Assembly (NCBI GenBank): GCA_964557045.1
Contig: CAZKYB010000002.1
Span: 1,212 to 65,211, forward strand
Direction of reading: 5' to 3'
Source: an uncultured archaeon
GTDB lineage: Archaea; Iainarchaeota; Iainarchaeia; Iainarchaeales; VGJJ01
Length of the DNA stretch: 64,000 nucleotides
Below, piece after piece: positions 1,097-56,391 of the stretch (the stretch's first letter is position 1; every line of letters begins with the position of its first letter). Under the pieces are notes generated by a model. It saw nothing but the letters and a program-made list of their open reading frames with translations, did not search any database and was not told where the DNA came from. The position numbers were made by a program, and so were the translations under genes.

Positions 1097-2662
1097 ATGA
1101 ATCCCACGAACAACCCCGTTGAAGGCGTCGTACTGGGACGCGGGCCCCATGCCATTATTCGAGAGGGATTCCCGTACAACCTCTATGATATCCACCGCGA
1201 CGAATTGAGCGAGGATGAGAAAAAACTCGCCCTCGCCCTCTCCTCCGCCCTCAACCGAAGCGCGCACACGGATGAATGGACCCAACTCATCCCCCCTAGT
1301 TTCCCCCGCACATTCCCGGGAGCATTCAAGACCCGTATTCTTTCCCTTTCAGATTCCATGGAGTTGGTTGAGAAACTTCCCGCAGACGAAGACTATGCGA
1401 TGCTCGCACGCAAGCTGAAGGAAATACTAGAAGAATACAAGGCCCCCGTGAAAAACATGGATGCCTTCATCACCCGCGTCTTGGATGACGGAATCGGATA
1501 CGGATACTTAGGCGAGCCCATGCGCGACCCCGACTTGGAAGAAGTCATGGTGAATGGCGCCACGCGCAACGTGTTCGTGTATCATCGGAAACACGGAATG
1601 TGTAAGACCGATATTCCCGTGGTCCCCCACGACGCCAGCATCCTTCGCATTGTATCCAAAGCGGCGAAGTTTGCAGGGAGAGGATTCGGGGATCGAGAAC
1701 CCCTGTTGGATGCACGCTTGCCCGATGGATCTCGACTGAATGCGACCTTTGAAACCGTCACTCCCTTTGGTCACTCCCTCACGATACGAAAATACACCTC
1801 GGAAAATCTCTCGATGGTGGAACTGATTGCTAAAGGAACCCTCTCAACGGAGCTCGCCGCGTTCCTCTGGATCATGGTGGAGGGAATGAATGTTCAACCC
1901 ATGAATTTGATTGTTACCGGTGGAAGCGGGTGCGGAAAAACGACCCTCTTGAATGCCCTCTCCACCGTTATCCGCTACCGGGAACGAATCATCTCCATCG
2001 AAGACACGACGGAGTTACAATTCAAGGGACGAGAAAATTGGGTGGCGATGGAGTCTCGCCCATCCATTGGAACGACGCAGGGAGTGAGCATGAATGATTT
2101 GCTCAAGAACTCCATGCGCATGCGACCCGACCGAATCATTGTGGGAGAAGTGCGCGGAGAGGAAGCCCAAACACTTTTCGTGGCCATGGACACCGGACAC
2201 CAAGGATGCTTGGGAACATTACACTCCAACACCGCCCGAGAGATGCTCGTCCGACTCACGACGGAACCCATGAATGTCCCTCAAACACTGGTGCACTTGC
2301 TCAACCTCATCGTGGTCCTGCAGAAAGTCTACGACCCCAAGGAAGGGATGAAACGCCGAGTCATGCAGGTCGCGGAAGTCACGCATTTGGATCAGAACGT
2401 GCTATTGTCCAATCTCTTCGAAAGAAACCCCGACACGGACGTTATCCTCCGCACGGACACCCCGTCGCACACCATGCAGGAGTTGGCCGACATTTCCGGG
2501 AAGAGCAAGACGAGAGTCATCCAGGAATTGGAAGTCCGAGAGAAGATTCTAGAATGGATGCTCAAACATAACATTCGCTCGGCGGTGGACGTGGAGAAGG
2601 TCATCCAGCAATACTATTTCGACCCCCAATCCGTACTTGAGCTTGTCAATCAGGACCTCTGA
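1097..2662 (+). CDS. Type IV pilus/archaellum-family secretion ATPase (FlaI/PilB/GspE-like), 521 aa.
   Basis: Walker A LIVTGGSGCGKTT, Asp box, His box (RIIVGEVRGEEAQTLFVAMDTGHQGCLGTLH), and the GspE/FlaI N2 domain motif VMVNGATRNVFVYHRKHGMCKTDI. No archaellin or FlaJ genes are adjacent. Confidence 0.85.
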   Translation: MNPTNNPVEGVVLGRGPHAIIREGFPYNLYDIHRDELSEDEKKLALALSSALNRSAHTDEWTQLIPPSFPRTFPGAFKTRILSLSDSMELVEKLPADEDYAMLARKLKEILEEYKAPVKNMDAFITRVLDDGIGYGYLGEPMRDPDLEEVMVNGATRNVFVYHRKHGMCKTDIPVVPHDASILRIVSKAAKFAGRGFGDREPLLDARLPDGSRLNATFETVTPFGHSLTIRKYTSENLSMVELIAKGTLSTELAAFLWIMVEGMNVQPMNLIVTGGSGCGKTTLLNALSTVIRYRERIISIEDTTELQFKGRENWVAMESRPSIGTTQGVSMNDLLKNSMRMRPDRIIVGEVRGEEAQTLFVAMDTGHQGCLGTLHSNTAREMLVRLTTEPMNVPQTLVHLLNLIVVLQKVYDPKEGMKRRVMQVAEVTHLDQNVLLSNLFERNPDTDVILRTDTPSHTMQELADISGKSKTRVIQELEVREKILEWMLKHNIRSAVDVEKVIQQYYFDPQSVLELVNQDL

Positions 2663-2702
2663 AAACGGTGGATTTTTAACGAGTAAAAGCCTACTTGAGG
2701 AA

Positions 2703-3509
2703 ATGAAATCCCCTATTCTCTTGGCGTGTTTTTTGGTCCTAGTATCATTCGGAATGCTTGTCCATGCAGACGCGTCATTGGTTGATCCGGTCGTGGAGAA
2801 GGCCAAGCCCAATGGAATATTGGACGCCGGAAGCATCTCCCCCGGAGAAAAAGTCGAACTCATCTTTTCACGCAACTCAGGATATGGGAAAGACGTCCTG
2901 TGGAACCAAGCCATCCTCTCCCTCAATGGAAACGCCAATGGGATTCAAACCTTTGATTCCGAAGAGGGAAGCGAATCCCTCATCACGCGAATTCAAACCA
3001 GCCCCCTCACGCGAGAAGGGGATTACACCTTCAACGTGCAGCTCGTCGGAGAAGAAGGCGTGCTCGAAAATGAAATGTACACGGTCAAGTTGAGCGTGAA
3101 AAAAGGATTATTGAAAGGAAGCCTCTCCGCGGAAAACGTGCAGGGGCGAGTCAACCAACCGTTGAGTTTTACCGTATTATTAGTGAACGATTCCTCCGCC
3201 CCCGTGAACGTATTGGTGCAACCGGCCCTCCCCACGGTTTGGAGCGAGGCACAAACCATTGCCATGAAGCCCCATTCTTTTGTTACCGTGCCCATTGTGG
3301 TGGTTCCTCGATTTGCGGGACCCAAGACGTTTGACATTACCCTTGTGCGCACGGATAATCGCGCGACGGTGGACACACTCCACGCCACATTAGTAGCCAA
3401 CCCCACATTGAAAGACCGGTATTCGGCGGGACTGTATGGGTTTCCCTTCTTCGCCGTGTCGTTGGTTTCCCACTACCTGGCGAATGCATTCTTCAGCTTC
3501 TTGCTCTGA
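2703..3509 (+). CDS. Secreted or surface protein with an N-terminal Sec-type signal peptide, two beta-rich Ig-like regions and a C-terminal hydrophobic anchor. Function unknown.
   Basis: MKSPILLACFLVLVSFGMLVHADA signal peptide (start moved from the ORF-track 2637 to the ATG at 2703). The C-terminus GLYGFPFFAVSLVSHYLANAFFSFLL is hydrophobic. It lies immediately downstream of the pilus ATPase. Confidence 0.5.
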   Translation: MKSPILLACFLVLVSFGMLVHADASLVDPVVEKAKPNGILDAGSISPGEKVELIFSRNSGYGKDVLWNQAILSLNGNANGIQTFDSEEGSESLITRIQTSPLTREGDYTFNVQLVGEEGVLENEMYTVKLSVKKGLLKGSLSAENVQGRVNQPLSFTVLLVNDSSAPVNVLVQPALPTVWSEAQTIAMKPHSFVTVPIVVVPRFAGPKTFDITLVRTDNRATVDTLHATLVANPTLKDRYSAGLYGFPFFAVSLVSHYLANAFFSFLL

Positions 3510-6677: not shown

Positions 6678-6875
6678 ATGCGCACCCTCTCCAAGATTGG
6701 ATGGTTCACCCTAGCCGTGGCCGCTCTCCTAGTAATGGGGGGACTGGCCCACTACGGATTGTTCACGGATGCCGGCATCGCCCTCGGAAGAGTCATCGGG
6801 ACCCTATTTTGGGGGGCCATCCTGTGGGGAGGAATCCTCCTCGCCCTCATGGCCGTACTCTTCCTCCAGGCGTGA
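6678..6875 (+). CDS. Small two-TM membrane protein (65 aa), unknown function.
   Basis: Two clear hydrophobic helices, in an intergenic gap between pelota and ABCE1. Confidence 0.3.
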   Translation: MRTLSKIGWFTLAVAALLVMGGLAHYGLFTDAGIALGRVIGTLFWGAILWGGILLALMAVLFLQA

Positions 6876-8666: not shown

Positions 8667-8694
8667 TTATTAATCAATTCCACCCAATCACACC

Positions 8695-10053
8695 ATGAAT
8701 CAGATCGCCCATTTCGATCGCGCCAAACTACTCCGAGAACTCAAAAACAGCCCATTCAATCAGGAGACCGATAAAGTTATGCGGGCCCTTGACGGGCTCG
8801 CGAAGAAGTTAGAGGGGGGATACAAACTCGATGTGAACCCCGACGAAATCATCCAGAAGTTCGCCCAAAATCCCGCGGACGAAATTGAAATTCGTAAGCT
8901 GTTCGCGGTGCGACCCTTTAGGATTTTCTTCACCACATCCCTATCTCAAAATGGAGAACTCATAATTACTGCGTTCCTAGGAGCGCGCCCTGAAGAACTG
9001 GCTCAACGAAGAAAAACATTACGAAATGCCAACAAACACCTATTCCACGGATTCTTGGCATCGAACGCCAAACTCAAACGACGAAAGGGATTTGCAGAAG
9101 ATATGCTTAAACTTGCCCGAGAAACCGAACACACCGCGTATGCAAAATTCTATGTAACTCCATATAATCGCGGCAAGGGAAAAAGGGAAATTGCCATTAT
9201 TATGCACCCATTCCAGCGAGCACGACTGGTATATGACCCGTCCAGTGAAATCCAATACACCAAATTCAATCATCGCGTCAAAAGAGTAAAAGGAATGCTT
9301 ACTCACCTACTGCACTCCAATAACCCCACCCTCAACAAGGCCCGACCAACAATTCAACAACTTTTACTCGCGATACAACAAGTTGGCGACTCTGCCACTC
9401 ATGAGGGAGAAGGATTCAAGAATAGCCTATCCGTACTTGACGCCCTCATTCGAGGCGTTCGTAAATCCCCTGATCTAAAAGTCGTAACAGCCACTCGAGA
9501 AAAAATGAGCCGCCAAGACCCCGCCAAGAGTCAAGGGAAACCAACTCTCCGAGGGACCGAACACCTTCGAACAATTCTATTACGTTTCAGAGGAGATGCC
9601 ATACATGTAAGGAACATGTACAAACGCAAGGGAAACGAACACCCCTATGCCAGTGCAGGAAACATATCGGGACGAAGGAGAGAACTCGTGCTATACCTCG
9701 TATCCGGTCTCGCTCGACGGGCATTTGAGGAGGTATTCCGAATCCCAGCCTATCGATATATGCTATCGCCCAATCAGATTGGCTCCATTCGCCTAATGAA
9801 AGAAAGAGGGCAGATACGAGAAAAGATTAAGGCATTCCCAGAACAGCTCATGAAAAGGCAAAAACGAATAACCGAGCCCCTTACAATCCCATTGAACCCC
9901 GTAACACCTAGCGGCGAATCATTGGACCCTGTTCCATTTACCCTCGACATGGTTTCACTCGATCGACGCAAAATAATCATTGCCCAACGCCAGCTCGAAA
10001 AAAGAAAGAAAAAAAGAGAAATGCGAAAAAACTCACGAAAAAGAAATCGGTAG
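8695..10053 (+). CDS. Hypothetical 452-aa protein with a very basic C-terminal tail and no recognisable domain. Its AT content is locally higher than its neighbours.
   Basis: Long clean ORF with a TATA-like ttattaatc about 30 nt upstream. The C-terminus is KRKKKREMRKNSRKRNR. There is weak RelE/Gp49-like resemblance around FRIFFTT...ELIITAFLGARPEE, stated at low confidence. Confidence 0.5.
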   Translation: MNQIAHFDRAKLLRELKNSPFNQETDKVMRALDGLAKKLEGGYKLDVNPDEIIQKFAQNPADEIEIRKLFAVRPFRIFFTTSLSQNGELIITAFLGARPEELAQRRKTLRNANKHLFHGFLASNAKLKRRKGFAEDMLKLARETEHTAYAKFYVTPYNRGKGKREIAIIMHPFQRARLVYDPSSEIQYTKFNHRVKRVKGMLTHLLHSNNPTLNKARPTIQQLLLAIQQVGDSATHEGEGFKNSLSVLDALIRGVRKSPDLKVVTATREKMSRQDPAKSQGKPTLRGTEHLRTILLRFRGDAIHVRNMYKRKGNEHPYASAGNISGRRRELVLYLVSGLARRAFEEVFRIPAYRYMLSPNQIGSIRLMKERGQIREKIKAFPEQLMKRQKRITEPLTIPLNPVTPSGESLDPVPFTLDMVSLDRRKIIIAQRQLEKRKKKREMRKNSRKRNR

Positions 10054-10106
10054 AAATCGAACTCAGGCTAAAACAGACTACAAAAAGAAGAGAACGAAAT
10101 AACACC

Positions 10107-10886
10107 CTATTTGTGTCCGCGAAGACCTGCGTGCTTTCGCTTCGCGTATTCGTGACCTCTCACGAGTTCAAATCGGTTCATGTACAAGATTGTTTTCAGG
10201 ATCTCCAAGAATGGAATAACAAAGCCGAACATCAACAAAACCGAGATGTATCTTCCGGCATACACAAAGGAATCAATGAACGCCTCCACTAAGGGAAGCA
10301 ACCCCACGAGAACGGTACCCAAGACCACGACTAAGAGGAACTCAAAGAAGTTTTGGCGAATCACATACCAGTTGGTTAATACGGCCTCACGAATGGGCTT
10401 CTCATCAATCACCAAGGATTGAGGGACGAAGACGAGGGAAATAGAAACCAACAGCAAGAGGGCGTTGAGCCCAAGAATGGGAATGTGAAACATACTCCCA
10501 AGGATTACGAGTGCAATGAACACCACGGACAGCAAGACAAAGTACATGAACATGGTCACGAAGAACTTCTGCACCATCTCACGCAAGTAGTAGCGCACCT
10601 TGATGTGGGACATGTCATTGCGCACCGCAAGAATGAGCAAGGTCAAGAGAATCGAATACATGGCGATGAAAACCAATCCCGCCAACACCTCCGCCAGCAC
10701 CACTTCCCAGGCTAAAGGAAAGAAGGAGTAGTCAAAGAAGATGGTCCCGTTGAACAAGGACATATTTCCAAAGCGCAAAAAGAAGAAAACGAAAACAAGC
10801 AGGATGGCAAAGGAGAGGGAGAGCTTGAGATTCTCACGATACTGATGGTGGACCTGCTCCACCAATGAAAATTCCCCTCGAACCAT
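10107..10886 (-). CDS. Polytopic membrane protein (about 6-7 TM), unknown function. Last gene of the pilin-like operon.
   Basis: 259 aa and almost entirely hydrophobic helices. It shares strand and tight spacing with 10964..11497 and 11542..13146. Confidence 0.55.
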   Translation of the reverse strand: MVRGEFSLVEQVHHQYRENLKLSLSFAILLVFVFFFLRFGNMSLFNGTIFFDYSFFPLAWEVVLAEVLAGLVFIAMYSILLTLLILAVRNDMSHIKVRYYLREMVQKFFVTMFMYFVLLSVVFIALVILGSMFHIPILGLNALLLLVSISLVFVPQSLVIDEKPIREAVLTNWYVIRQNFFEFLLVVVLGTVLVGLLPLVEAFIDSFVYAGRYISVLLMFGFVIPFLEILKTILYMNRFELVRGHEYAKRKHAGLRGHK

Positions 10887-10963
10887 AAACTATGCAAAAG
10901 GCGAAACAGGATTATAAGCCTGCGGGAAGGAAACCCAACGCGACCCTCAACATAATGGGAGAT

Positions 10964-11497
10964 TTAGAGAAGGTGGGGGAGTTTCTCTTTCCAATAGGAA
11001 TGAATCAACACATAGGAGACCCACCCCAGAAGCGCGGACAAGACGAACAGGAAAAAGGGAGAGGGAAGCAGCTGCTCCACGAAATGACTCGAGACAAACG
11101 TCCACGTGGGACCAAACGAATAGAACCCCGGACTCGGCTTGCCCTGCACCATCGCCGTGAGAAAGGCGTTGTTCCAGAAATACCCAATCAGGGCGATGAA
11201 AAACGTCACGTAGGAAATGATCACAAAACCCAACGCAAAAGGGACCGACAAAATCTGTTCATCCTTGAAGTGGCGCAAATACCAAGAGATGGAAACCCAG
11301 GCAAACAGGAAACCAATCAGGGGAATCAACCACAGCAAGGGATCCACAAAAACATACCCGTCAAAGGGCTTTCCCGAGAAGAATGATTGACCATACCCGT
11401 CCCACTTGGGCAGAAAGGACAAGGAGGCGTAAAGAAGATAGAGAAAGACATACGACACCACTACGAGAATACCACCCTTCACGTGACGGGAATGCAT
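10964..11497 (-). CDS. Polytopic membrane protein (about 4-5 TM), unknown function. Middle gene of the pilin-like operon.
   Basis: 177 aa with hydrophobic helices. It lies 45 nt downstream of the pilin-like gene. Confidence 0.55.
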   Translation of the reverse strand: MHSRHVKGGILVVVSYVFLYLLYASLSFLPKWDGYGQSFFSGKPFDGYVFVDPLLWLIPLIGFLFAWVSISWYLRHFKDEQILSVPFALGFVIISYVTFFIALIGYFWNNAFLTAMVQGKPSPGFYSFGPTWTFVSSHFVEQLLPSPFFLFVLSALLGWVSYVLIHSYWKEKLPHLL

Positions 11498-11541
11498 ACT
11501 ACCCTACACGACTGAAGGGGATTAAAAACGGGCGGGTTCGG

Positions 11542-13146
11542 CTACGGAGAATAATAAAACGCACTCATCCCAATCGACGCGAACGTGGAAGAAAATGGCG
11601 AAACCGAGTTTAAGGTGAAGGCACTCGAAGGAGGATTGGGATACCGAATCCCCACAAACATCACATCCGGAGACGCCGGAGCGTTGAGGATGTTGTCCTT
11701 GAACTTCTGCGTGTAGAAATCGTACGGTTGACTGCAGGTGTAAAACCAATCCTCTACATCATCATCGGGATTGGGATCCAAATCCAGAAAACCCATCTTG
11801 GGGCCCCCGGGAAACGGATTCACATCCAGATTAAGCACATTAGGAGAAGCAATCGAGGCGTCCGTCATCAAGGCGCACGCCATCAGGGGATCCGCAATGG
11901 GTGCGGAGGGATTCAAGACATAAAATTCGAGATTCGCCAGCTCGGAGGTGTACCCGTTACACAAGGCCTGTCCGCAGGTCACATCGGGAGTGGTGCCGCA
12001 GGAAGACTTGTACTGAACATCGAACCCATTCACTCCCACCGAAAAAACAGGCGCGAAGTTCTGGAGAAACACCGCCCCTTTGATGGGGGCAATATCCATG
12101 CTGATGAAGGGACCCTTTTTGTTCGGCCCTGTCGAATGCGTGAAAAAGGAATCGACTCCGCTCACGTTGACACAAAACGCACTCTCGTAGGAGTCCCCCA
12201 CGCTACAAACAAACTCTCCTTCAGGCACACCCAAGGATTGACATGCCTCATCGATACTCCCTGAAATGGGACTCGTCGAAGGGGCTGGACAACTGAGCGG
12301 GGAACAATTGGGAGGAAAAATACACCCAAACTGAACATAGGGTGTGCTCGGCGCAGGATTGCCCAGATTCTCGCACTGGAATGAAGACCCGAGCAGGAAT
12401 GGACTCGTGGAGTACCAGGAAAGTTTATCGGCATCCGTGTCCCACCCTTCCTTTACCGTGGTTCCATCAGGTGCGACTTGGGAAACTTTCATAAAAATCT
12501 GAACGGAGACCAAATCCTTGTGGTTGAGATTACCCACGGAAACGATAACCACCTCTTTCTTTGGCTCGGCAGGTGACAACTGAAAGGTTGCGTCGTCAAT
12601 GAAAGAAGATGGAAGTGCATCCAAGTCAGAAAAATCGAACTCCGTGGAGCAGGGACCCGTGAGCTTGACGACGGGACCCGAACCATCATCGCTGGTCTCG
12701 GACTCGCACATGTTTAAGGGAAGCGTTACGCAATTCTCGGTAGCCGGATCACAAACCCCCCCAGCCGGTGTTACGGGAAACTCCAGCGTGATGATGGGGC
12801 CCTGCCCACCATAGAAACTACCTCCGTCACAAATCCCATTCTTGCAGAAAATTTTGAACCCAATCCCATCTAGCTGGAGGGTTCTCCAGGTCGTGTCCTC
12901 GAGAATAAACCCATTCGGCGCCGTGAGCAGACCATCATTCCAATTCAAGTGGAGACTGCACGCCGCGTTGTCGGATCCCGAACAGAGGTCGATCTTCTCA
13001 TACTCCTGAAGATTTTGATCAAACAAACCCCCGCCGTATGGACCTAGAAAAATAAGCAAGAGGAAAACAATCAACGCCACTAAGGAGCCGGCCCCGAGCA
13101 ACAAGAGATACTCGAGAGAGCCCTGCCCAGAGGAAACACGACGCAT
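11542..13146 (-). CDS. Large (534 aa) Cys-rich extracellular protein with an archaeal class III (type IV prepilin-like, DUF361-type) signal peptide. Candidate pilin or adhesin.
   Basis: The N-terminus MRRVSSGQGSLEYLLLLGAGSLVALIVFLLLIFL has G|QxSxEYLLLL with Glu at +5, like EppA/PibD substrates. The ectodomain carries about 24 Cys (CSGSDNAAC, CKNGICDGG, GGVCDPATENC, NCSPLSCP and others). Start moved from 13179 to the internal ATG at 13146. Confidence 0.7.
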   Translation of the reverse strand: MRRVSSGQGSLEYLLLLGAGSLVALIVFLLLIFLGPYGGGLFDQNLQEYEKIDLCSGSDNAACSLHLNWNDGLLTAPNGFILEDTTWRTLQLDGIGFKIFCKNGICDGGSFYGGQGPIITLEFPVTPAGGVCDPATENCVTLPLNMCESETSDDGSGPVVKLTGPCSTEFDFSDLDALPSSFIDDATFQLSPAEPKKEVVIVSVGNLNHKDLVSVQIFMKVSQVAPDGTTVKEGWDTDADKLSWYSTSPFLLGSSFQCENLGNPAPSTPYVQFGCIFPPNCSPLSCPAPSTSPISGSIDEACQSLGVPEGEFVCSVGDSYESAFCVNVSGVDSFFTHSTGPNKKGPFISMDIAPIKGAVFLQNFAPVFSVGVNGFDVQYKSSCGTTPDVTCGQALCNGYTSELANLEFYVLNPSAPIADPLMACALMTDASIASPNVLNLDVNPFPGGPKMGFLDLDPNPDDDVEDWFYTCSQPYDFYTQKFKDNILNAPASPDVMFVGIRYPNPPSSAFTLNSVSPFSSTFASIGMSAFYYSP

Positions 13147-13233
13147 GGACGCAAGCAACTCGACCGGGAATAAAAACAAGCGGGTTGGGGCTCACCCACT
13201 CCCCTAAAAAACCCGGGTGCGCATCCCTACTTC

Positions 13234-19009: not shown

Positions 19010-19020
19010 TGCGACGGTTG

Positions 19021-19092
19021 GCCCCGTGGTCTAACGGCTAGGATAGTTCCTTTACATGGATCGGGCGGCAGTTCGACTCTGCCCGGGGCCAC
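19021..19092 (+). tRNA. tRNA-Val (anticodon TAC).
   Basis: Manual fold: acceptor GGCCCCG/CGGGGCC, anticodon loop TTTACAT, T-arm GGCAG-TTCGACT-CTGCC, discriminator A. There is one T-T mismatch in the anticodon stem, and the variable loop is only 4 nt. Confidence 0.6.
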
Positions 19093-19130
19093 TCGAAAAT
19101 GATATAAGTGAACAATCCCTCTGGGAAAGA

Positions 19131-19826
19131 ATGACCTTCTCCTGGAACCCCTACCTGTCTAACTTGAGACAGGCACTCTACCTCATCGAATCCGCGCGAA
19201 AGCCCATTCAAGGATTGCCTACTCCAAAAAAATTGGCTGATAGTCTCCCCACGATTGAAGAGGTAAGAAACGAGGCAACGAAGCAAGGAATCCCAATACC
19301 TGATCCAATCATTCAACCTTTGCTTTCTGCCACACGATCGCAATTATTAGATCCGCATCACATCGCGCGAGAAGCATACCCTGGGACTGTTGCACAACTC
19401 ATCGAACGGACGGTAAAAAATATCCGTGAAAGAAAAAAACCAAAGCTGTACCTCGCATTCTCACGGAAAGCCGAGGGATCCCCTCCAAAGCCCGCTCCAA
19501 AATCCAAAACCAATGCGTGGAAAACACTACGTGAATTCCTGATTCAACCGGAAAACTCCAAATTCAAAACATTGCCCGGAACTCTTTCCCGACTCATGAG
19601 CGGACATTCCCCTCGCACTCCACTCGAGGTTGAATATCAAAAACTCCTCCAACGAAAACAAATCCTCGCACTTGTGAAACATCGCATACAAGTACGCGAG
19701 GAATGGGCTGCTGCTTCCATGAAACGAGCCCGGGCCATCCAAGCCAACACATTCATTCCGCCCGGAGGAAAAGAAACCCCCGTGCCGCCCAAACCGCCCC
19801 TTTTTCGACGCAAGAGGGGAAAGTAA
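19131..19826 (+). CDS. Hypothetical Pro/Lys-rich protein (about 231 aa) immediately 3' of tRNA-Val.
   Basis: ORF-track 19056 start overlaps the tRNA, so start is moved to the ATG at 19131 (MTFSWNPYL...). No recognisable domain. The C-terminus is basic. Confidence 0.4.
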   Translation: MTFSWNPYLSNLRQALYLIESARKPIQGLPTPKKLADSLPTIEEVRNEATKQGIPIPDPIIQPLLSATRSQLLDPHHIAREAYPGTVAQLIERTVKNIRERKKPKLYLAFSRKAEGSPPKPAPKSKTNAWKTLREFLIQPENSKFKTLPGTLSRLMSGHSPRTPLEVEYQKLLQRKQILALVKHRIQVREEWAAASMKRARAIQANTFIPPGGKETPVPPKPPLFRRKRGK

Positions 19827-20080: not shown

Positions 20081-20108
20081 AAACCATCACCGGGGATTTT
20101 CGTACAGT

Positions 20109-20180
20109 GCGAGAGTCGTCTAGTGGTTAGGATCGAACCTTGCCAAGGTTTGGGCCCGGGTTCAAATCCCGGCTCTCGCA
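20109..20180 (+). tRNA. tRNA-Gly (anticodon GCC).
   Basis: Acceptor GCGAGAG/CTCTCGC, D-arm GTCT/GGAT with AGTGGTTAG loop, anticodon stem GAACC/GGTTT with loop TTGCCAA, T-arm CCGGG-TTCAAAT-CCCGG, discriminator A. Confidence 0.85.
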
Positions 20181-20188
20181 TTCTTTTC

Positions 20189-20260
20189 GCAGCGATAGTC
20201 TAGTGGTTAGGATGGAGCCTTCCCAAGGCTCCGACCCGGGTTCAAATCCCGGTCGCTGCA
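20189..20260 (+). tRNA. tRNA-Gly (anticodon CCC).
   Basis: Acceptor GCAGCGA/TCGCTGC, anticodon stem GAGCC/GGCTC with loop TTCCCAA, T-arm CCGGG-TTCAAAT-CCCGG, discriminator A. Confidence 0.85.
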
Positions 20261-20324
20261 TGGGATTTCTTTCTTCTTGAAGGGGCTTTTATAATCATTA
20301 TTGCGCGGGAACTCTAGTACGACC

Positions 20325-20396
20325 GCAGCCATAGTACAGTGGTCAGTATAGGGGCTTTCCAAGCCCTTGACGTGGGTTCGAATCCCACTGGCTGCA
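20325..20396 (+). tRNA. tRNA-Gly (anticodon TCC).
   Basis: Acceptor GCAGCCA/TGGCTGC, anticodon stem GGGGC/GCCCT with loop TTTCCAA, T-arm GTGGG-TTCGAAT-CCCAC, discriminator A. Confidence 0.85.
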
Positions 20397-20449
20397 CTTT
20401 CAACTTGTTTTTTCCAAACCGTTTTATGGTCCAACTCAACCATTAAACC

Positions 20450-24012: not shown

Positions 24013-25230
24013 ATGTTCGACCTGCTCAAGAAAAAAATTGCAGGGTTCACGGAAAAGATTCTCGGACACACGACTGAACAGACCTCACCGGTGGCTCCGG
24101 CACCCGCCCCCACACCAACTCCTCAAGCAGCCACTCCCCCCGTAGTGGAAGAAAAGAAAATCGAAACCCCCACTCCAATCGTGAAAACCCAAAAGGTCGA
24201 ACGCACTTCCTCTCCCATAGTGGAGAAAAAAGAACTCCCAACTACGCCCATTCCTCCCGTGGCGGAGAAACCGGCCCTCGAACCATTGACTCCCACTTCC
24301 CTTCCAGAGATACAGCAACGAGACGAAAGGGAAATCAAGGCCAAAATAGGAGTGACGCAAAAAGTCACCAGCCTCCTCACGGGAACCGTTACCCTCAAAC
24401 CCGAGACCGTTCAATCATTCCTAGAAGAGTTTGAACTCTCATTGTTAGAAGCAGATGTTGAATTGGAAACCGCCCAAGCGCTCATCACTCAACTGGAGAA
24501 GCGACTGAGCGGGAAAACCATCTCTTCGCGAGACGATCCCAACACGATTATCCTTTCTGAGATCAAAGCGGCGTTGTATGAGATACTCCCTCCTTCGGAA
24601 TTAGATTTCGATCGACGCATAGAGACGCAAAAACCATTCGTCATTCTCATCCTTGGTCCGAATGGGGCGGGAAAAACCACGACTATCGCCAAACTTACCA
24701 ACTATTTGAAAAAGAAAGGAAAAAGTGTGGTGTTGGCGAGCGCGGACACCTTCCGTGCGGGAAGCATTGAACAGTTGGGGGTGCATGCGGAAAAACTCGG
24801 CGTGCGATTAATCAAACACCAATATGGTGCCGATCCCGCGGCCGTGGCATTTGACACGGTGAAAGCAGCGCAGGCCGAGAACGCCGACGTGGTCATCATC
24901 GACACGGCGGGACGACAAGACACCAACAAGAACTTGCTCGAAGAATTGAAAAAAATCCAGCGCGTGATCCAGCCTCATTTGAAAATATACATCGGAGAGA
25001 GTTACACGGGACAAGCCATCCTCGGACAAGTGGAAACATTTGACCAAACCATTGGAATTGATGGATTCATCCTCACCAAGTTGGATACGGACTCCAAAGG
25101 GGGAGGAGTGTTGACTATCCTTCATCGAATCAAGAGGCCCATTCTCTTCTTTGGTGTGGGGCAAGGATACGAGGATTTGACCCCCTTTTCCTTAGACGCC
25201 TTCCTCGACCGACTCATCCCCACGGCATAA
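24013..25230 (+). CDS. ftsY: Signal recognition particle receptor FtsY.
   Basis: Pro/Thr/Glu-rich N-terminus followed by an NG domain (GPNGAGKTTTIAKL, DTAGR, TKLD). Confidence 0.9.
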   Translation: MFDLLKKKIAGFTEKILGHTTEQTSPVAPAPAPTPTPQAATPPVVEEKKIETPTPIVKTQKVERTSSPIVEKKELPTTPIPPVAEKPALEPLTPTSLPEIQQRDEREIKAKIGVTQKVTSLLTGTVTLKPETVQSFLEEFELSLLEADVELETAQALITQLEKRLSGKTISSRDDPNTIILSEIKAALYEILPPSELDFDRRIETQKPFVILILGPNGAGKTTTIAKLTNYLKKKGKSVVLASADTFRAGSIEQLGVHAEKLGVRLIKHQYGADPAAVAFDTVKAAQAENADVVIIDTAGRQDTNKNLLEELKKIQRVIQPHLKIYIGESYTGQAILGQVETFDQTIGIDGFILTKLDTDSKGGGVLTILHRIKRPILFFGVGQGYEDLTPFSLDAFLDRLIPTA

Positions 25231-26328: not shown

Positions 26329-27165
26329 TTGGGAATGAAATACACGCACGCACTTCTCCTTGCGCTGGTCCTCCTGACGGGGTCCTCGGTCGTATTTGCC
26401 CAAATGGACGGAGGGACTGTCAATTCTTCCATTCTCCTTGCGAATACCCTCCGAGACAATGCCTACAATGTGGTCCTAGTCTCGGCCGCCGCCCTCATCC
26501 TGCTAGTGGTATATTCCATCAAGACCAAGCCCCGCAAGGAGAAAATGAAAAAACTCTTGTTTTGGTCGATTGTGTTTTTCGCCGTGGGAAGCAACCTCTA
26601 TCTCGCAGGGGCTACGCTTTACACCAACCACGTGTCTCCGACCGGGGGACCGGTGCACTGGCACACGGATTTTGAATTATGGAACTGCGGACAATTCCTC
26701 GATGTGGTAGACCCTACCGGCTGGGACAATCGCGTGGGAACGTGGGAAGTCCACGAGCACAATGACAACCGGATGCACATTGAGGGAACCATCCTCGATA
26801 TGGACCAGGCATCCTTCCATCACTTCTTCGAAATTATTGGCGGAACCGTGGATAGAAGCGGGATGAACATCCCCACGATCAATGGAAACGTCAACCTCCC
26901 GGCGCAGGGAATGTGCGGTGGAAAGCGGGCCGAACTGCAAGTGTTCCGATTGTACATCACCAACCCCGAAAGCGCGAAGAATTGGACCTACGTCCAGGAA
27001 AAGCTCGAATTCCCTGAGGGATTGGAGAAGATTATGGCGCCCTATGCCAACGTCCCTCCTGGAGACTGCTTGATTATTGAATATGACACCCCCAAGTCGA
27101 AGACCGCCCATTCTTGCGCGTCCTATCGATCGGCGATGAATCGAGGTGAACTGCATGGCCGTTGA
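26329..27165 (+). CDS. Membrane-anchored exported protein with a His-rich and Cys-containing domain. Possible metal-binding or redox substrate.
   Basis: Signal-like N-terminus plus two further TM helices. The domain carries HWHTDFELWNCGQF, HEHNDNRMHIEG, GMCGG, GDCLII and HSCASY. Its stop overlaps the start of the CcdA-like gene. Confidence 0.5.
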   Translation: MGMKYTHALLLALVLLTGSSVVFAQMDGGTVNSSILLANTLRDNAYNVVLVSAAALILLVVYSIKTKPRKEKMKKLLFWSIVFFAVGSNLYLAGATLYTNHVSPTGGPVHWHTDFELWNCGQFLDVVDPTGWDNRVGTWEVHEHNDNRMHIEGTILDMDQASFHHFFEIIGGTVDRSGMNIPTINGNVNLPAQGMCGGKRAELQVFRLYITNPESAKNWTYVQEKLEFPEGLEKIMAPYANVPPGDCLIIEYDTPKSKTAHSCASYRSAMNRGELHGR

Positions 27166-27865
27166 AGCCTATCTCCCCACACTTGGAACCGTTATCGTGA
27201 CCGCGTTGATTGATTCGATTAATCCCTGCGCGATTGGCGTACTCATCCTCATGATTACGGTGTTGCTCGGGAAAAAGAAAAGCACGCGCGACATGCTGCT
27301 GTTCGGCGGACTCTACATCACGGCGGTCGCCACCACGTATTTCCTCGCGGGATTGGGGTTGATCTATTTCCTCTCCGTTATTCCCTTGTATGTGTCCGAA
27401 TACATCTCCATCGCAGTAGGGTTATTCATCGTCTTCGCGGGATTGTTAGAAGTGAAGGACTTTTTCTGGTACGGAAAAGGATTCTCGCTCCAAATCCCCT
27501 ATGAGTACGCCCAGAAAATCAACAAGTACGCCGAAAATGTCACCGTCCCCGGGGTCATTTTCCTCGGAGCGTTTGTGGCAGCCGTTGAACTCCCCTGCAC
27601 GGGCGCCCCCTACTTGGCCATCATCACGCTGCTCTCTCAATACTTCGACTTCACGGCCTTGTTGTTGCTGATCCTCTACAACATTATCTTCGTATCCCCC
27701 CTCATTGTCATCCTGTTGGCAGTGGCAGCTGGACGAAAAGTCGCGGACTTCAAGAAATTCAAGGAAGAGAACAAGGGATACATGCGCCTCCTGATTGGAC
27801 TATTACTCATCTCCATGGGCTGGCTCCTCATCCTTATCTCGAATGGAACCATCAACTTCGGGTGA
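27155..27865 (+). CDS. ccdA: CcdA/DsbD-family membrane thiol-disulfide electron transporter.
   Basis: Conserved Cys in TM1 (SINPCAIGVL) and TM4 (ELPCTGAPY). About 6 TM. Start at ATG 27155. Confidence 0.7.
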   Translation: MAVEAYLPTLGTVIVTALIDSINPCAIGVLILMITVLLGKKKSTRDMLLFGGLYITAVATTYFLAGLGLIYFLSVIPLYVSEYISIAVGLFIVFAGLLEVKDFFWYGKGFSLQIPYEYAQKINKYAENVTVPGVIFLGAFVAAVELPCTGAPYLAIITLLSQYFDFTALLLLILYNIIFVSPLIVILLAVAAGRKVADFKKFKEENKGYMRLLIGLLLISMGWLLILISNGTINFG

Positions 27866-28190: not shown

Positions 28191-28877
28191 TTAGTCTGCC
28201 ACTCGTTTCGCGAAATGATGAATCGCCCGGGAGAGATAGAGATATTGCCGGCGCGAGAAATCATCCAATGGACCCTCCACCCGACCGTCGTCCGTCTTGC
28301 GGAACGTGCGGGGGTGGCGATCCAAACTTACCAACAGACTCTCGGCCACATTCGCGGAAGAATAACTTAGGAGGTCCTGCCACACTACGACACGCGACTC
28401 AGGATTCATGCGCTGGATGGCCTTTGTCAGCGTGGCGAGGGTCCCTCCCAAATACTGATAATCCACCACCACATACCGCACGGGACGAGCCCCCACCACG
28501 CGCTGGGCACGAAGGGCGTGGACCATCATCCCCACGTTCTGCTCAACCGTGGGGTCGGGCTGACTGGGACTTATGAAATAATGGACCTTCCGGCGCGAAC
28601 GAGGGGAAGCCGGATAGAGCGCAGCATAGGCCTCAAACGCAGGACGCATTCCCCGACCGACGAAAATGAGGTGGTCCGAAGGCACCGTCATGGACCGAAC
28701 TCCCCGAGCTACCCGGATGGCGTTGCGGGCAATCCGCAACAAGGCCTTTCGGGACTCCGGAGCCATCCTAAAAATAGCAGCCCGACGCGCCACGGAAACC
28801 TTACGGAAACGCTTTTTGGACGAGGATCCACGGCGACGCCACATTCTAGGGAGGAGGCGACACTCTATTATAATCAT
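28191..28877 (-). CDS. Hypothetical protein, member of a local three-paralog family (Arg-rich N-terminus, RGxxPxF and RYVxxD motifs).
   Basis: 228 aa filling the gap between the ATP-cone gene and SRP54. The opposite strand in this gap gives only Pro/Arg-rich junk. It shares motifs with 59781..60221 and 42137..42724. Confidence 0.5.
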   Translation of the reverse strand: MIIIECRLLPRMWRRRGSSSKKRFRKVSVARRAAIFRMAPESRKALLRIARNAIRVARGVRSMTVPSDHLIFVGRGMRPAFEAYAALYPASPRSRRKVHYFISPSQPDPTVEQNVGMMVHALRAQRVVGARPVRYVVVDYQYLGGTLATLTKAIQRMNPESRVVVWQDLLSYSSANVAESLLVSLDRHPRTFRKTDDGRVEGPLDDFSRRQYLYLSRAIHHFAKRVAD

Positions 28878-28898
28878 TCAGGACGGGAAATAGTCCAT

Positions 28899-30251
28899 AT
28901 GGGATTCGGCGACAGCTTACGGAAGGCCTTCGACTCATTCAACGCATTGAGGGTGGTCGACAAGGATAGTGTCAAGACCCTTGTGAAGGAACTCCAGAGA
29001 GCCCTGATATCCGCCGATGTGGATATTGAGACAGTATTGAGCCTCTCCAAGCAGCTCGAGGCTGCCGCCCTATCTGAAAATATTCCCAAGGGATTGAACC
29101 GAAAAGAACACCTCATCTCCCTCACGTACGATGCTCTTGTTGATTTGATTGGGGGAAAAGAAAACAAGATCCCCGAGAAACCCCACAGCATCTTGTTGGT
29201 TGGATTGTTTGGATCTGGAAAAACAACCTCAGCCGCTAAACTGGCTCATTATTACATGAAGAGGGGATTGCGCGTAGGAATCATTGCCGCCGACACCTTC
29301 CGACCGGCGGCGATTGATCAATTGGAACAGCTCACGAAAAAACTCCCCGGGGTTTTGTTCTACTCCAACCGCAATGAGAAAGAAGCCAGCATCGTAGTCA
29401 AGCAAGGAATTGTGGACCTGCTCAGTAAGGGAGCCCACACCATTATTGTGGATTCCGCCGGACGAAGCGCGCTCGACCCGGAATTGGTCGATGAAGTAAA
29501 GCGCATCCACGCCGTATTGAAGCCCGAACACACGTGGTTGGTGTTAGGTGGCGACGTGGGACAGCAGGCGAAAAAGCAAGCCAAGGCGTTCCATGAAACA
29601 GTCGGAGTGAACGGCGTCATCCTCACGCGAATGGACGGAAGTGCCAAGGGAGGAGGCGCATTATCCGCATGCCGCGCCACGAACGCACCCGTACACTTCA
29701 TTGGGGTGGGAGAAAAGATACAGGATTTGGAAGCGTTTGATGCCCCGCGCTATTTGTCACGCGTCATGGGATACGGCGATTTGAAGGGACTATTAGAAAA
29801 GATGGAAGACCTGAAAGTGGAAAGCGCCTCGGCCGCTAATCCCCTTGAGGGACCCTTTACCCTCCAAACATTCTACGCGCAACTCGAATCCACTCGCAAG
29901 TTAGGGCCGTTGTCCAAAGTTGCGGAAATGCTAGGAATGGGAAACCATATTCCCAAGCAAGACTTGGAAGTCGGAGAAGGAAAATTGGATGCCTACAAGG
30001 CCATGATGGACAGCATGACGCGACAGGAGAAGCACGATCCTGAAACCATCACTTCATCTCGCATCGCCCGCATTGCAAAAGGAAGCGGAAAAGGGGAGAA
30101 TGACGTGCGAGAATTATTGAAACACTACCGCCAACTCAAGAAAATGGTCTCGCAATTCAAGCACCTCGACGAGGACGCGCTCAAGAACCCCAAGGACATG
30201 CAGAAGATGATGAAGAAATTCCAGAAACCCAAGAAGATTAAACTCCGATAA
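28899..30251 (+). CDS. srp54: Signal recognition particle protein SRP54.
   Basis: N domain MGFGDSLRKAFDSF, G domain (GLFGSGKTTSAAKL, DSAGR, TRMD) and a Met-rich M domain. The ORF-track start at 28518 is read-through; the true ATG is at 28899. Confidence 0.9.
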   Translation: MGFGDSLRKAFDSFNALRVVDKDSVKTLVKELQRALISADVDIETVLSLSKQLEAAALSENIPKGLNRKEHLISLTYDALVDLIGGKENKIPEKPHSILLVGLFGSGKTTSAAKLAHYYMKRGLRVGIIAADTFRPAAIDQLEQLTKKLPGVLFYSNRNEKEASIVVKQGIVDLLSKGAHTIIVDSAGRSALDPELVDEVKRIHAVLKPEHTWLVLGGDVGQQAKKQAKAFHETVGVNGVILTRMDGSAKGGGALSACRATNAPVHFIGVGEKIQDLEAFDAPRYLSRVMGYGDLKGLLEKMEDLKVESASAANPLEGPFTLQTFYAQLESTRKLGPLSKVAEMLGMGNHIPKQDLEVGEGKLDAYKAMMDSMTRQEKHDPETITSSRIARIAKGSGKGENDVRELLKHYRQLKKMVSQFKHLDEDALKNPKDMQKMMKKFQKPKKIKLR

Positions 30252-30262
30252 AGGAACAAACA

Positions 30263-31081
30263 ATGATCCCCCAGCTTGCATTCTTCGTGAACGTGGTAGT
30301 CGGGGCCATCAGTGCCTACACGGACATCAAAACAGGATACATCTACGACTGGATCACGTATCCCCTCATCGCCATTGGAATCATCCTCACCATTATCACC
30401 CAGCAGTGGATTGGACTTTTACTCGCGGGGTTGATTTATGGGGTTGGATGGTTGGCGTATCGCTCAGGCAAAATGGGCGGAGGAGACATCAAGCTCCTCG
30501 CCGGAATGGCCCTTGTACAACCCACCTATGAGGGGATGATTTTCCCCCTCGCCGTACTGCTGATTGGCGCCCTGAGCGCATGTATGGTGTTTTGCCTGTA
30601 TTACGTGGGAGGATTTCTCCTCAGCAAGCCCAAAATCCACTGGAACACCCCTCGGAAGAAAGGAGCGGGAATTCTCCTTGTGGTTTTTGTTGCATTGTTC
30701 CTGTACATGAACGCCCAACTCCCCGCGGGGGGGATTACACTCCTCTTGCTGGAAATCGCATTGATAATAGGATTGATTTTCTACGCCTTTGAAGAGGAAG
30801 TGAAAAAACACGCCTTCCTCAAACGAATTCCACTCAATGAATTAGACGAAGACGAAGTCTTAGCCATTGAACACCTCACGAAAGAAGAAAAAGAAAAATG
30901 GGGGACCAAAATAAGCGATTTGATTTCGCGAGAAGACATTCCCGCGCTCAAGCACAAGGGACTCTCTACCATTCCCGTGTATCGCAACCTCCCCAAGTTC
31001 GCCCCGTTCTTACTTGTGGGGATACTCGCGACGTATCTCTTCCCGGAATGGATCTCCCAAATCGTGCCAAGCTTTTTATAA
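30263..31081 (+). CDS. Type IV prepilin/preflagellin peptidase (A24 family, PibD/FlaK/EppA-like).
   Basis: Polytopic membrane protein with two catalytic Asp contexts (YTDIKTGYIYDW; GGGDIKLLAG). Confidence 0.8.
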   Translation: MIPQLAFFVNVVVGAISAYTDIKTGYIYDWITYPLIAIGIILTIITQQWIGLLLAGLIYGVGWLAYRSGKMGGGDIKLLAGMALVQPTYEGMIFPLAVLLIGALSACMVFCLYYVGGFLLSKPKIHWNTPRKKGAGILLVVFVALFLYMNAQLPAGGITLLLLEIALIIGLIFYAFEEEVKKHAFLKRIPLNELDEDEVLAIEHLTKEEKEKWGTKISDLISREDIPALKHKGLSTIPVYRNLPKFAPFLLVGILATYLFPEWISQIVPSFL

Positions 31082-41841: not shown

Positions 41842-42162
41842 ATGACCGATCTCTTCTACGACGAATACTTGAAAGCCAGCGAGAAATTCAAACAAAACGC
41901 AGGGGCCGCCAACGAAGCCTATCAAGCGTGGAAGAATACCGCCATGGCTGCTGGAGCATTGGACAAAAAAACGAAAGAACTCATGGCATTGGCCGCCGCG
42001 TGTGCCATCCAGTGTGAATACTGCATCGACTCTCACTCGCAAAAGGCTAAAGCCTATGGCGCCACTGAACAAGAAGTCGCGGAAACCATCCAGGTGGCTA
42101 CCGTCGTCAAAGCCGGTGCGACTGTCTCCTATGGAATTAAGGCGTTCGAACACTTTCTTTGA
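41842..42162 (+). CDS. Carboxymuconolactone decarboxylase / AhpD-like family protein.
   Basis: AhpD core CxxCxxxH (CAIQCEYCIDSH). Confidence 0.7.
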   Translation: MTDLFYDEYLKASEKFKQNAGAANEAYQAWKNTAMAAGALDKKTKELMALAAACAIQCEYCIDSHSQKAKAYGATEQEVAETIQVATVVKAGATVSYGIKAFEHFL

Positions 42163-42724
42163 AGGGCATCTCCCGAGTATTCATGGACGATAATCGCAAA
42201 TAAAGCTGGGAGGCCACACTACTGTACGCATGGGAAAATTGAACAACCTCTTTTTCAGGCAAAATTGAACGTAATTTATTTTCCAGGTATCGCTCCGAAG
42301 AAGAAACAGCATCCAAATCAAAACTCTCACATAGTTTATGGATTTTTTTCCGTAAGGAACGGTGCGCGGCAGTGTTTAGAATTCCGATACGAAACATTGC
42401 CCGCTGAAATGCCATTTCTTGAATCTCTGGTTGAATCGCCAGTCTCCACCGGGACAATGCATTCCTGAATCGGTCCATTTCCCCAATAAATGCGGGTGAC
42501 GTGCCCCTCCGCATCACCGCGGAATACCTCTGAACATTCGCCGCACAACGAATGAGATCACCCCGTATGGCCGAGAGGGTGGGGTCATTGCTCTCATAGA
42601 TGCGAGTGGCCATCCTGTCAAACATGGGTGAATTCGAAAATAAACGCCCGCGGCGAAGAATACGAAAACGACGATAGGGCGCCGTAAAATGACGAACAAA
42701 CCGCCTCACCGGTCGGGAATGCAT
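42137..42724 (-). CDS. Hypothetical protein, second member of the Arg-rich paralog family.
   Basis: N-terminus MHSRPVRRFVRHFTAPYRRFRILRRGRLF, then ...RGTSPAF, aligning with RRAAIFRMAP...RGMRPAF of 28191..28877. Confidence 0.45.
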   Translation of the reverse strand: MHSRPVRRFVRHFTAPYRRFRILRRGRLFSNSPMFDRMATRIYESNDPTLSAIRGDLIRCAANVQRYSAVMRRGTSPAFIGEMDRFRNALSRWRLAIQPEIQEMAFQRAMFRIGILNTAAHRSLRKKIHKLCESFDLDAVSSSERYLENKLRSILPEKEVVQFSHAYSSVASQLYLRLSSMNTREMPFKESVRTP

Positions 42725-56385: not shown

Positions 56386-56391
56386 GGTGTT

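Follow-up and report, generated by a model that had tools for sequence, protein, structure and literature searches.

A candidate pilin-like adhesin with a hypervariable ectodomain beside a conserved membrane-protein pair in an archaeon of the Iainarchaeum/Diapherotrites lineage

Archaeal type IV pilins of the DUF361 type, such as the EppA-processed Epd pilins of Methanococcus maripaludis (PMC3875500, PMC4390842), are roughly 60-150 amino acids (aa) long. They are made with a short basic leader that ends in Gly, after which come Gln at +1, Glu at +5 and some 25 residues of hydrophobic helix; their genomes also hold an A24 peptidase and a FlaI/TadA-like ATPase. The same signature and the same kinds of enzyme were found in a 64-kb stretch of contig CAZKYB010000002.1 (the window, to which all positions refer unless another locus is named), whose source is a small-genome DPANN archaeon in the Iainarchaeum/Diapherotrites lineage. 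Here the signature heads the 534-aa product of gene A (11542-13146, minus strand), which is set apart from known pilins by its size, by a multi-domain ectodomain with a predicted scaffold of 10 disulfides, by its place outside a pilus cluster, with no platform gene or other pilins adjacent to it, and by the cassette-like exchange of its ectodomain. Gene A is followed on the same strand, after 44 nt, by gene B (10964-11497; 177 aa, a predicted membrane protein with four transmembrane (TM) helices and no known family) and, after a further 77 nt, by gene C (10107-10886; 259 aa, a predicted 6-TM membrane protein). The three genes face a convergent open reading frame (ORF) on the plus strand (8695-10053), an ORFan coding for a basic protein of 452 aa (pI 10.7). 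All four ORFs were found where the preliminary description of the window had placed them. We consider it probable, though well short of certain, that the locus consists of a modular pilin-like adhesin (A), a functionally separate and conserved B-C pair, and an inserted ORFan.

The modular pilins of Streptococcus sanguinis offer a second parallel, as in these proteins, exemplified by the bimodular PilB (PMC8179133), a pilin N-terminus is likewise fused to a large binding module. A differs from them in being archaeal, in having no sequence similarity to them and in being a Cys-rich multi-domain protein that appears to contain a jelly-roll resembling carbohydrate-binding modules (CBMs). A corresponding role of A as an adhesive minor pilin is suggested by an AlphaFold2 (AF2) model and its structural matches, and the incorporation of A into a filament is a proposal. 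The class-III substrate-binding proteins of the Sulfolobales bindosome (bioRxiv 10.64898/2026.04.22.720090) are, like A, large extracytoplasmic class-III proteins encoded away from the pilus machinery, but A has no solute-binding fold and no ABC transporter as a neighbour, and its ectodomain is hypervariable. The interest of the locus lies in the attachment partners and means of uncultured DPANN archaea such as Iainarchaeum, for which A would be a concrete candidate determinant of attachment or recognition. Its design is unusual in combining a pilin handle, a 20-Cys scaffold, a putative lectin-like domain and an ectodomain that appears to be swapped between otherwise 95-100 % identical genomes.

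Gene A and the pilus machinery of the window

The leader of gene A was predicted from the sequence and the alignment to comprise the seven residues MRRVSSG (13126-13146, minus strand), with cleavage before Gln8, after which the chain continues as QGSLEY with Glu at +5. The mature protein would begin with a hydrophobic helix resembling the alpha1 stem of pilins (residues 8-36; 13039-13125, minus strand), which was apparent both in the hydropathy profile and in the AF2 model (helix 8-34). At the DNA level the region 13042-13161 is 98 % identical to the corresponding part of L001, the closest relative (L001, L004 and similar labels denote the loci fetched from relatives). Among 5.8 billion proteins 12 homologs of A were found, with identities of 31-69 %. 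The motif MRRVSSG-QGSLEYLLLLGAG with Glu at +5 was kept in every full-length homolog and MRRVSSG-QGSLEYLLLLGAGSLVALIVFLLLIFLG was conserved in 12 of 12, hydropathy and a FlaFind-like scan being in agreement. In the family alignment the short basic leader is followed by an invariant G-Q-x-x-L-E-Y core, then by the hydrophobic helix, which is conserved even across divergent alleles, and then by a conserved EYEKIDLC. The Pfam model PF04021 matched A at residues 7-27, with a score below its threshold, and 12 of the 13 members of the A family at E <= 1 (best 2.7e-7). A scan of all six frames returned gene A as the sole class-III-signal candidate in the window. The DUF361-type prepilin signal recognised in the preliminary description holds across the family, and the sequence makes a convincing case that gene A encodes a class-III-signal, type IV pilin-like protein of the DUF361 type.

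An alternative TTG start at 13179 would extend the product of gene A to 545 aa. Some 30 nt before the ATG at 13146, and overlapping this alternative start, there is a TATA-like box (TTTTTATT, 13169-13176, minus strand; conserved in relatives as CTTTTATTCC). Its position favours the 534-aa form with the 7-residue leader and makes the use of the TTG unlikely.

The Cys residues of A number 20, and not about 24 as had been reported. Even homologs that share only about 30 % identity retain every one of the 20, from which a fixed scaffold of disulfides, probably the 10 mentioned above, can be deduced. The protein is acidic (pI 4.05) and contains two N-glycosylation sequons. The AF2 model, built on a 13-sequence alignment (pLDDT 77.8, pTM 0.71), comprises the N-terminal helix 8-34, which continues to about residue 50, and a beta-rich multi-domain ectodomain. 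Structural matches, in which a DNRLRE-type beta jelly-roll was compared, pointed to the putative CBM-like jelly-roll within the ectodomain; no solute- or periplasmic-binding-protein fold was present among them. The C-terminus (...SAFYYSP) carries no TM helix and no PGF motif in the alignment. A search of PDB sequences with the profile of A gave no match, and Pfam, NCBIfam, PHROGs and PADLOC returned nothing beyond the sub-threshold match to PF04021.

A DsbD/CcdA-like membrane protein (PF02683 and PF11139) is encoded at 27146-27865 and is preceded by a gene for a family-less membrane protein of 278 aa (block 26329-27865). The pair may represent extracytoplasmic thiol-disulfide machinery, which would be relevant to a surface protein with 20 Cys.

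A candidate processing enzyme for A, which the preliminary description did not mention, is encoded at 30263-31081 (plus strand). It is a Peptidase_A24 protein of the PibD/FlaK/EppA type (PF01478, E 7e-14; its 52.6 bits exceed the gathering score, 26.5). Its gene is located directly downstream of the SRP54 gene (28518-30251), and FtsY is encoded at 24013-25230. A possible assembly ATPase, a FlaI/TadA/BasE-like T2SSE protein, is encoded at 1097-2662 on the plus strand (PF00437, E 3.5e-40; the best NCBIfam matches, FlaI, TadA and BasE, were all below their cut-offs). As noted previously, this is the sole secretion ATPase in the window and it is far from the three genes; the distance is about 8 kb, with housekeeping genes between. 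The TM scan and Pfam analysis of polytopic ORFs likewise bore out the earlier statement that the window contains no FlaJ/TadC-like gene, since no T2SSF domain was detected, and no T2SSF platform adjoins the ATPase either here or in the four relatives whose loci reach it.

The ATPase gene is followed at 2703-3509 by a gene for a conserved, bitopic protein of 268 aa, whose beta-rich body lies between a signal or TM segment at the N-terminus and a TM segment at the C-terminus (from the sequence and the TM scan). An ORF of 266-269 aa occupies the same slot in several relatives and stands directly beside the T2SSE ATPase gene in L004, L005 and L010. Upstream of the 1097-3509 block lies an ORF whose translation reads as that of a putative CCA-adding-enzyme-like protein.

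The helix-plus-leader module of A also heads many short pilins encoded in tandem in metagenome loci. These were retrieved with an N-terminal sub-alignment of A, a search that mostly returned generic DUF361 pilins. Tandem clusters of 60-150 aa DUF361 pilins, with an N-terminus (RGQGALEYLLLIGGAVL) near-identical to that of A, were found in aquifer and sediment metagenomes (L034 2627-3932; L103 3236-4777; L041, L054, L061 and L107), and it is possible that they are the major pilins of related organisms.

Ectodomain variation among relatives

In pilE/pilS of Neisseria and in the pilA allele groups of Pseudomonas a conserved helix-coding region is joined to a variable C-terminal region, which homologous recombination exchanges, and conserved Cys residues frame the variable parts. 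Gene A resembles these systems in its conserved N-terminal helix, its apparently recombining variable region and its conserved Cys residues.

A sliding DNA comparison with L001 (60-nt windows) delimited a hypervariable ectodomain cassette at 11572-13041 (minus strand), a divergent allele with sharp edges inside the gene. It begins at codon 36, where the hydrophobic helix ends, and runs until some nine codons short of the stop. DNA identity to L001 was 95-100 % on both flanks and 40-88 % within the cassette; the corresponding protein identities were 100 % for RFC, 99 % for ABCE1 and C, 98 % for B and 69 % for A. By the Nei-Gojobori method the synonymous divergence from L001 (dS) was 0.09-0.29 in the flanking genes, whereas the proportion of differing synonymous sites (pS) inside A reached 0.70 and was saturated; the ratio of nonsynonymous to synonymous divergence (dN/dS) was 0.02 for C and 0.11 for both B and A. 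As the synonymous sites in the cassette are equally divergent, we conclude that the allele was imported or diverged anciently, and that it was not accelerated locally. Moreover, the A allele of L001 shares 78 % identity with the allele of a genome in which B is only 79 % identical, but 72 % with that of the window, where B is 98 % identical. The similarity of A alleles thus disagrees with the relatedness of the genomes.

The simplest reading of these data is that homologous recombination at the conserved ends shuffles ectodomain alleles across the population. No silent, pilS-like copies of A were found within the 64-kb window or in related loci, and, in contrast to the bacterial systems, the variation is seen between genomes and not within one. 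Surface proteins that experience frequency-dependent selection typically show such a pattern of exchange, which marks the product of gene A as being under strong selection of this kind, with a host, a virus or a surface as candidate agents, and gene A as a clear target for population genomics.

The same variability could also be explained if A were a membrane-anchored envelope (S-layer-like) protein or a virus receptor, its helix being only a signal-anchor that never enters a filament, its variation reflecting escape from viruses, and B and C being unrelated neighbours. Replacement of alleles at the strain level would be typical of envelope proteins targeted by viruses, A is large and acidic, and neither a platform nor a major pilin is encoded in the window. 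This explanation is nonetheless rather unlikely. The N-terminus of A is exactly the DUF361 module of the short tandem pilins, the A24 peptidase and the FlaI-like ATPase are present, and two sequons are few for an archaeal S-layer glycoprotein; in addition, A is lost in some lineages, as described below, which would not be expected of a sole envelope protein.

The B-C pair and its relation to gene A

In six relatives fetched through homologs of A the gene order was always RFC-A-B-C-ABCE1, so the linkage of the three genes noted in the preliminary description is conserved wherever A exists. The complete Iainarchaeum genome CP064981.1 (L027) likewise contains all three. Loci fetched through homologs of C gave further arrangements: L010 has a divergent A of 558 aa, L011 has the order RFC-B-C-ABCE1 without A, and in L009, also devoid of A, an unrelated ORF of 286 aa stands between B and C (RFC-B-insert-C-ABCE1). 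The B-C spacer therefore tolerates insertion. The inserted ORF itself (L009 5952-6812) encodes a putative small kinase of the RIO/Kdo type, judging from a GIWHGHPHMGNFII motif read from its sequence.

A census of GTDB species representatives yielded 15 loci, of which 3 were truncated and 12 were informative for A. B and C were adjacent in 13 of the 13 loci with upstream sequence, while A was present in 8 of the 12 informative species and absent from the remaining 4. In the tree of ABCE1 and Pelota the A-less L011 branches between A-carrying lineages, which means that A was lost at least once. Two distant loci also have no A: in L013 a homolog of B (hidden Markov model match, E 5e-13) is followed by a MiaB-like gene and then by C, and in L014 a 4-TM B-like protein is encoded in the position of B, between RFC and C. 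As B and C are kept without A, even in these distant loci, they constitute a pair that is conserved, upstream of which A sits as an accessory gene. In the metagenome loci B-C was not located beside pilin clusters.

The promoter motifs are consistent with this division. In addition to the box of A, a TATA-like box of B (TTTTTAAT, 11521-11528, minus strand) was found in the 44-nt A-B spacer, 31 nt upstream of the ATG, and it is conserved in L001, L004, L006, L007 and L009. The box of C (TTATAAT, 10911-10917, minus strand) is placed 31 nt upstream of the ATG in the 77-nt B-C spacer, and its position is kept in 10 of the 11 related loci checked. Thus each of A, B, C and the 452-aa ORF has a box at -30 or -31, and those of A and B are conserved in most relatives. 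The separate, conserved boxes suggest that A, B and C are probably separate transcription units, with read-through being possible. About half of the genes in the window have a TATA-like box starting 28-32 nt before the ATG (examples are the ATGs at 2703, 3553, 6678, 15576, 43884 and 48440). From this position, which is a signature of leaderless transcripts, we infer that such transcripts are widespread here. Operon-internal genes (the SUF cluster at 53966-57831; the gene at 61557) have no TATA box, and several are preceded by purine-rich GGAG- or GGTGA-like stretches before the start.

About four TM helices were predicted in B and about six in C, and neither protein contains Cys. B, with its four TM helices and conserved aromatic-rich outer loops, had no relatives detectable by profile searches outside the lineage. 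Close homologs numbered 21 for B (47-98 % identity) and 28 for C (57-92 %). Neither gene had a match in Pfam or NCBIfam, PHROGs and PADLOC returned nothing except a meaningless PADLOC match to C (E 0.01), and searches of PDB sequences with the B and C profiles gave no real match. Matches of B to PsbK were rejected as an effect of TM-helix composition.

An exhaustive search of 1.84 billion representatives with the alignment of C gave 136 clusters, and the named ones that were looked up were all from Diapherotrites except one fusion protein from Halobacteriales. The remotest matches examined were longer proteins that join a C-like domain to SpoIIM (PF01944), the one with a named source being that from Halobacteriales. 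The profile matches P0151, P0158, P0188, P0194 and P0172 had E values of 2e-8 to 6e-4; the first four of them carry SpoIIM, and P0151 and P0172 have sub-threshold matches to DUF7847 or DUF7544. In an hhalign comparison C and the remote SpoIIM-fused domain matched at 98.2 % (E 3e-14 over 117 columns), and both contain the motifs FVPQxxVxDE and E(I/L)xKTxLY. Gene C itself has no direct match in Pfam, DUF7847 included. These profile comparisons confirmed C as a remote homolog, at the sequence level, of the N-terminal domain of haloarchaeal SpoIIM fusions.

The haloarchaeal DUF7847/DUF7544-SpoIIM fusions (PF01944; arCOG01994), in which the shared motifs take the form FxPQxxVxD/E and E/D-(I/L/M)-x-K-T-x-L-Y, belong to a group regarded as a putative membrane-remodelling component (PMC5898192). 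C differs from them in standing alone and in having a partner, B, that is not SpoIIM-like. The idea that B-C is such a fusion split in two was rejected, as the hhalign probability for a relation of B to SpoIIM was 0.1 %.

The structural model of C has a fold of the CysZ/choline-transporter-like (CTL) class. In comparisons with CysZ (3tx3), CTL1/SLC44A1 (7wwb) and yeast PNS1 (9f63), C, with its approximately 6 TM helices, showed 9-10 % identity and had no Pfam match to their families; by sequence it belongs neither to the CysZ/EI24 nor to the choline-transporter Pfam families. The positive-inside rule and two conserved sequons in loop 1 suggest that the most conserved motifs of C (RNDxSH, PQSLVIDEKPI and NRFELVRGHEYA) face the cytoplasm.

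Two known types of pilin-related membrane protein were considered for B and C and rejected. A T2SSF platform of the FlaJ/TadC/PilC kind is contradicted by the lack of a PF00482 domain and of a cytoplasmic helical domain, by the distance from the secretion ATPase gene and by the occurrence of B-C without A. Archaeosortases and exosortases are polytopic proteins with a conserved catalytic Cys, accompanied by Arg and His, and act on substrates that carry a sorting signal such as PGF-CTERM at the C-terminus. Such an enzyme does not agree with the lack of Cys, which means that neither protein is sortase-like, with the lack of a C-terminal TM helix or PGF motif in A, or with the lack of a Pfam match.

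It had been proposed that the two membrane proteins form a minimal platform, or a sorting or anchoring machinery, and that A, B and C constitute one dedicated surface-filament or adhesion module. The identical order, strand and short gaps in every A-carrying genome are what such a module would predict, the lack of T2SSF in the window and beside the ATPase here and in four relatives leaves room for a non-canonical platform, and B and C have no assigned family. It is also known that type IV pilus components in DPANN archaea diverge beyond recognition (PMC6393860). The module is nevertheless improbable. B-C is retained where A is absent or lost (4 of the 12 species, and L009, L011, L013 and L014), each of the three genes has its own conserved TATA box, and the evolutionary rates of A and of B-C are completely uncoupled, purifying selection on B and C being strong while the ectodomain of A is replaced even among near-identical genomes; furthermore, B and C have neither a platform-type cytoplasmic helical domain nor Cys, and they do not accompany the pilin clusters of the metagenome loci. 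The CysZ/CTL-like fold of C shows no features of FlaJ/TadC or of a sortase either, and a platform or sorting machinery dedicated to pilins could not be upheld.

The preliminary description had itself named what would speak against its proposal, namely that B and C belong to an unrelated family and are not conserved together with class-III-signal proteins. The transporter-like fold of C and the occurrence of B-C without A come close to this. A variant of the proposal, in which B-C would be an unrecognised non-T2SSF platform or anchor for class-III-signal proteins, kept without A because it serves other pilin-like clients, is decidedly improbable. If it were true, A would be the most visible client, a host- or surface-recognition determinant diversified by recombination, and the genomes would have to be without a canonical FlaJ/TadC.

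B-C is most likely a housekeeping membrane unit serving small-molecule or ion transport, or membrane homeostasis or remodelling, and a part in pilin assembly is unlikely. The pair deserves a study of its own and not annotation as pilus machinery, also in view of the link that C provides between the CysZ/CTL fold class and the haloarchaeal SpoIIM-fused domain.

The transporter-like fold of C raises the question whether the three genes could constitute an uptake system, in which A, as a class-III-anchored glycan-binding receptor like those of the Sulfolobus bindosome, would feed a TRAP/TTT-like pair of a small and a large membrane protein, B-C. In TRAP and TTT systems (dctPQM, tctCBA) the genes follow the order binding protein, small subunit, large subunit. 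The order seen here, a large extracytoplasmic protein, a 4-TM protein and a larger polytopic protein, mirrors this, and the CBM-like domain of A and the CysZ/CTL fold of C would suit it. Class-III-signal binding proteins are also widespread in archaea (bioRxiv 10.64898/2026.04.22.720090). An uptake system is all the same very improbable, given that A has no periplasmic-binding-protein fold, that its ligand-facing part is hypervariable, unlike that of substrate-binding proteins, that B-C occurs without A in one third of the species and that each of the three genes appears to have a promoter of its own. Neither an ABC permease nor an ABC ATPase is encoded next to them, since the neighbouring ABCE1 (Fer4_RLI and two ABC_tran domains) is a translation and ribosome-recycling factor and not a transporter component, and the transport role of CTL proteins is itself disputed (PMC13160678).

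The favoured explanation, a modular adhesin upstream of a separate membrane pair, would imply the following course of events. A would be made with its 7-residue class III leader, which the A24 peptidase encoded at 30263-31081 is predicted to remove. The N-terminal helix would then anchor mature A in the membrane, or allow it to enter a filament as a minor subunit or a tip subunit, in which case the major short pilins and the platform of the filament would be encoded elsewhere in the genome. The acidic ectodomain of about 490 aa, built on the 20-Cys scaffold, would most likely bind a glycan or another surface ligand, as the resemblance of its jelly-roll to CBMs suggests. Only the ectodomain segment 11572-13041 would be exchanged between lineages, by homologous recombination through the conserved ends of gene A, of which the 5' one codes for the helix, and the outcome would be surface variation at the population level without silent cassettes. 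B-C, expressed from its own promoters, would have a lineage-wide housekeeping role independent of A, and the 452-aa ORF would have been inserted recently at a recurrent insertion site. None of this amounts to a new mechanism.

Several points weigh against this explanation. The match of gene A to PF04021 (12.9 bits, E 0.11) is below the gathering score of 23.7, and the cleavage, surface display, ligand binding and filament assembly of A are predictions. Neither a T2SSF platform nor a short major pilin was found within the 64-kb window, which is why filament incorporation was termed a proposal above. The promoters were recognised from consensus motifs. Wherever A exists it lies directly upstream of B on the same strand, and a functional link between them is possible. 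Finally, the model of C is of medium confidence (pLDDT 67).

The convergent ORF and neighbouring genes

The description of the 452-aa gene as a recent acquisition agrees with its distribution and composition. The ORF is strain-specific: its slot is without it in all relatives checked, and the only other copy, an identical one, is on a contig of 1.9 kb. Its GC content at third codon positions (GC3), 0.459, is the lowest of the 53 genes in the window (mean 0.601, z -2.6), with normal GC1 and GC2, a combination that suits a genuine gene which is either foreign or young. In addition to its TATA-like box it has a polybasic tail. It matched nothing in Pfam, NCBIfam, PHROGs, PADLOC, PDB sequences, phage records, GTDB genomes, JGI metagenomes or IMG/VR, it did not resemble the other variable basic ORFs of the relatives, and terminal inverted repeats and target-site duplications were sought and not found. 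A functional tie of this ORF to genes A, B and C is not supported.

The convergent spacer between ABCE1 and C measures 2-87 nt in most of the relatives checked. In the window it spans 8667-10106 and contains the 1.36-kb ORF, corresponding to an insertion of about 1.4 kb. Other insertions were found in the same spacer in L006 and L018 (ORFs of 196 aa and 88 aa; L006 11078-12111) and in L024 (about 0.9 kb, 1300-2186), which makes it a recurrent insertion site. The 88-aa protein of L006 and L018 reads from its sequence as putatively HicB/UPF0150-like.

Two further basic ORFs without a family also have a low GC3, one at 19056-19826 (256 aa, 0.463, z -2.6) and one at 42137-42724 (195 aa, 0.474, z -2.3). 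The former starts inside or beside a tRNA-Val gene (19020-19092), and its relative in L005 shares with it only a stretch of 29 residues. Genes for tRNAs are classic integration sites.

The flanks of the three genes are occupied by housekeeping genes, with Pelota, a 65-aa membrane ORF and ABCE1 on one side and the RFC small subunit, Nre and ThrRS on the other. The 65-aa ORF (6678-6875) encodes two TM helices, has an unusually high GC content (0.61; GC3 0.74), and is without a family match; upstream of ABCE1 it is kept at exactly 65 aa in nearly all relatives. In several relatives the RFC small-subunit gene contains inteins, some with LAGLIDADG motifs, the products being 770, 1398 and 950 aa long (L006 5591-7903; L008 794-4990; L009 2332-5184), and in L004 (6257-6918) an HNH endonuclease and a 441-aa ORF are inserted beside RFC. 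The RFC gene of the window is intein-free. Three tRNA-Gly genes (GCC, CCC and UCC) are tightly clustered at 20108-20397.

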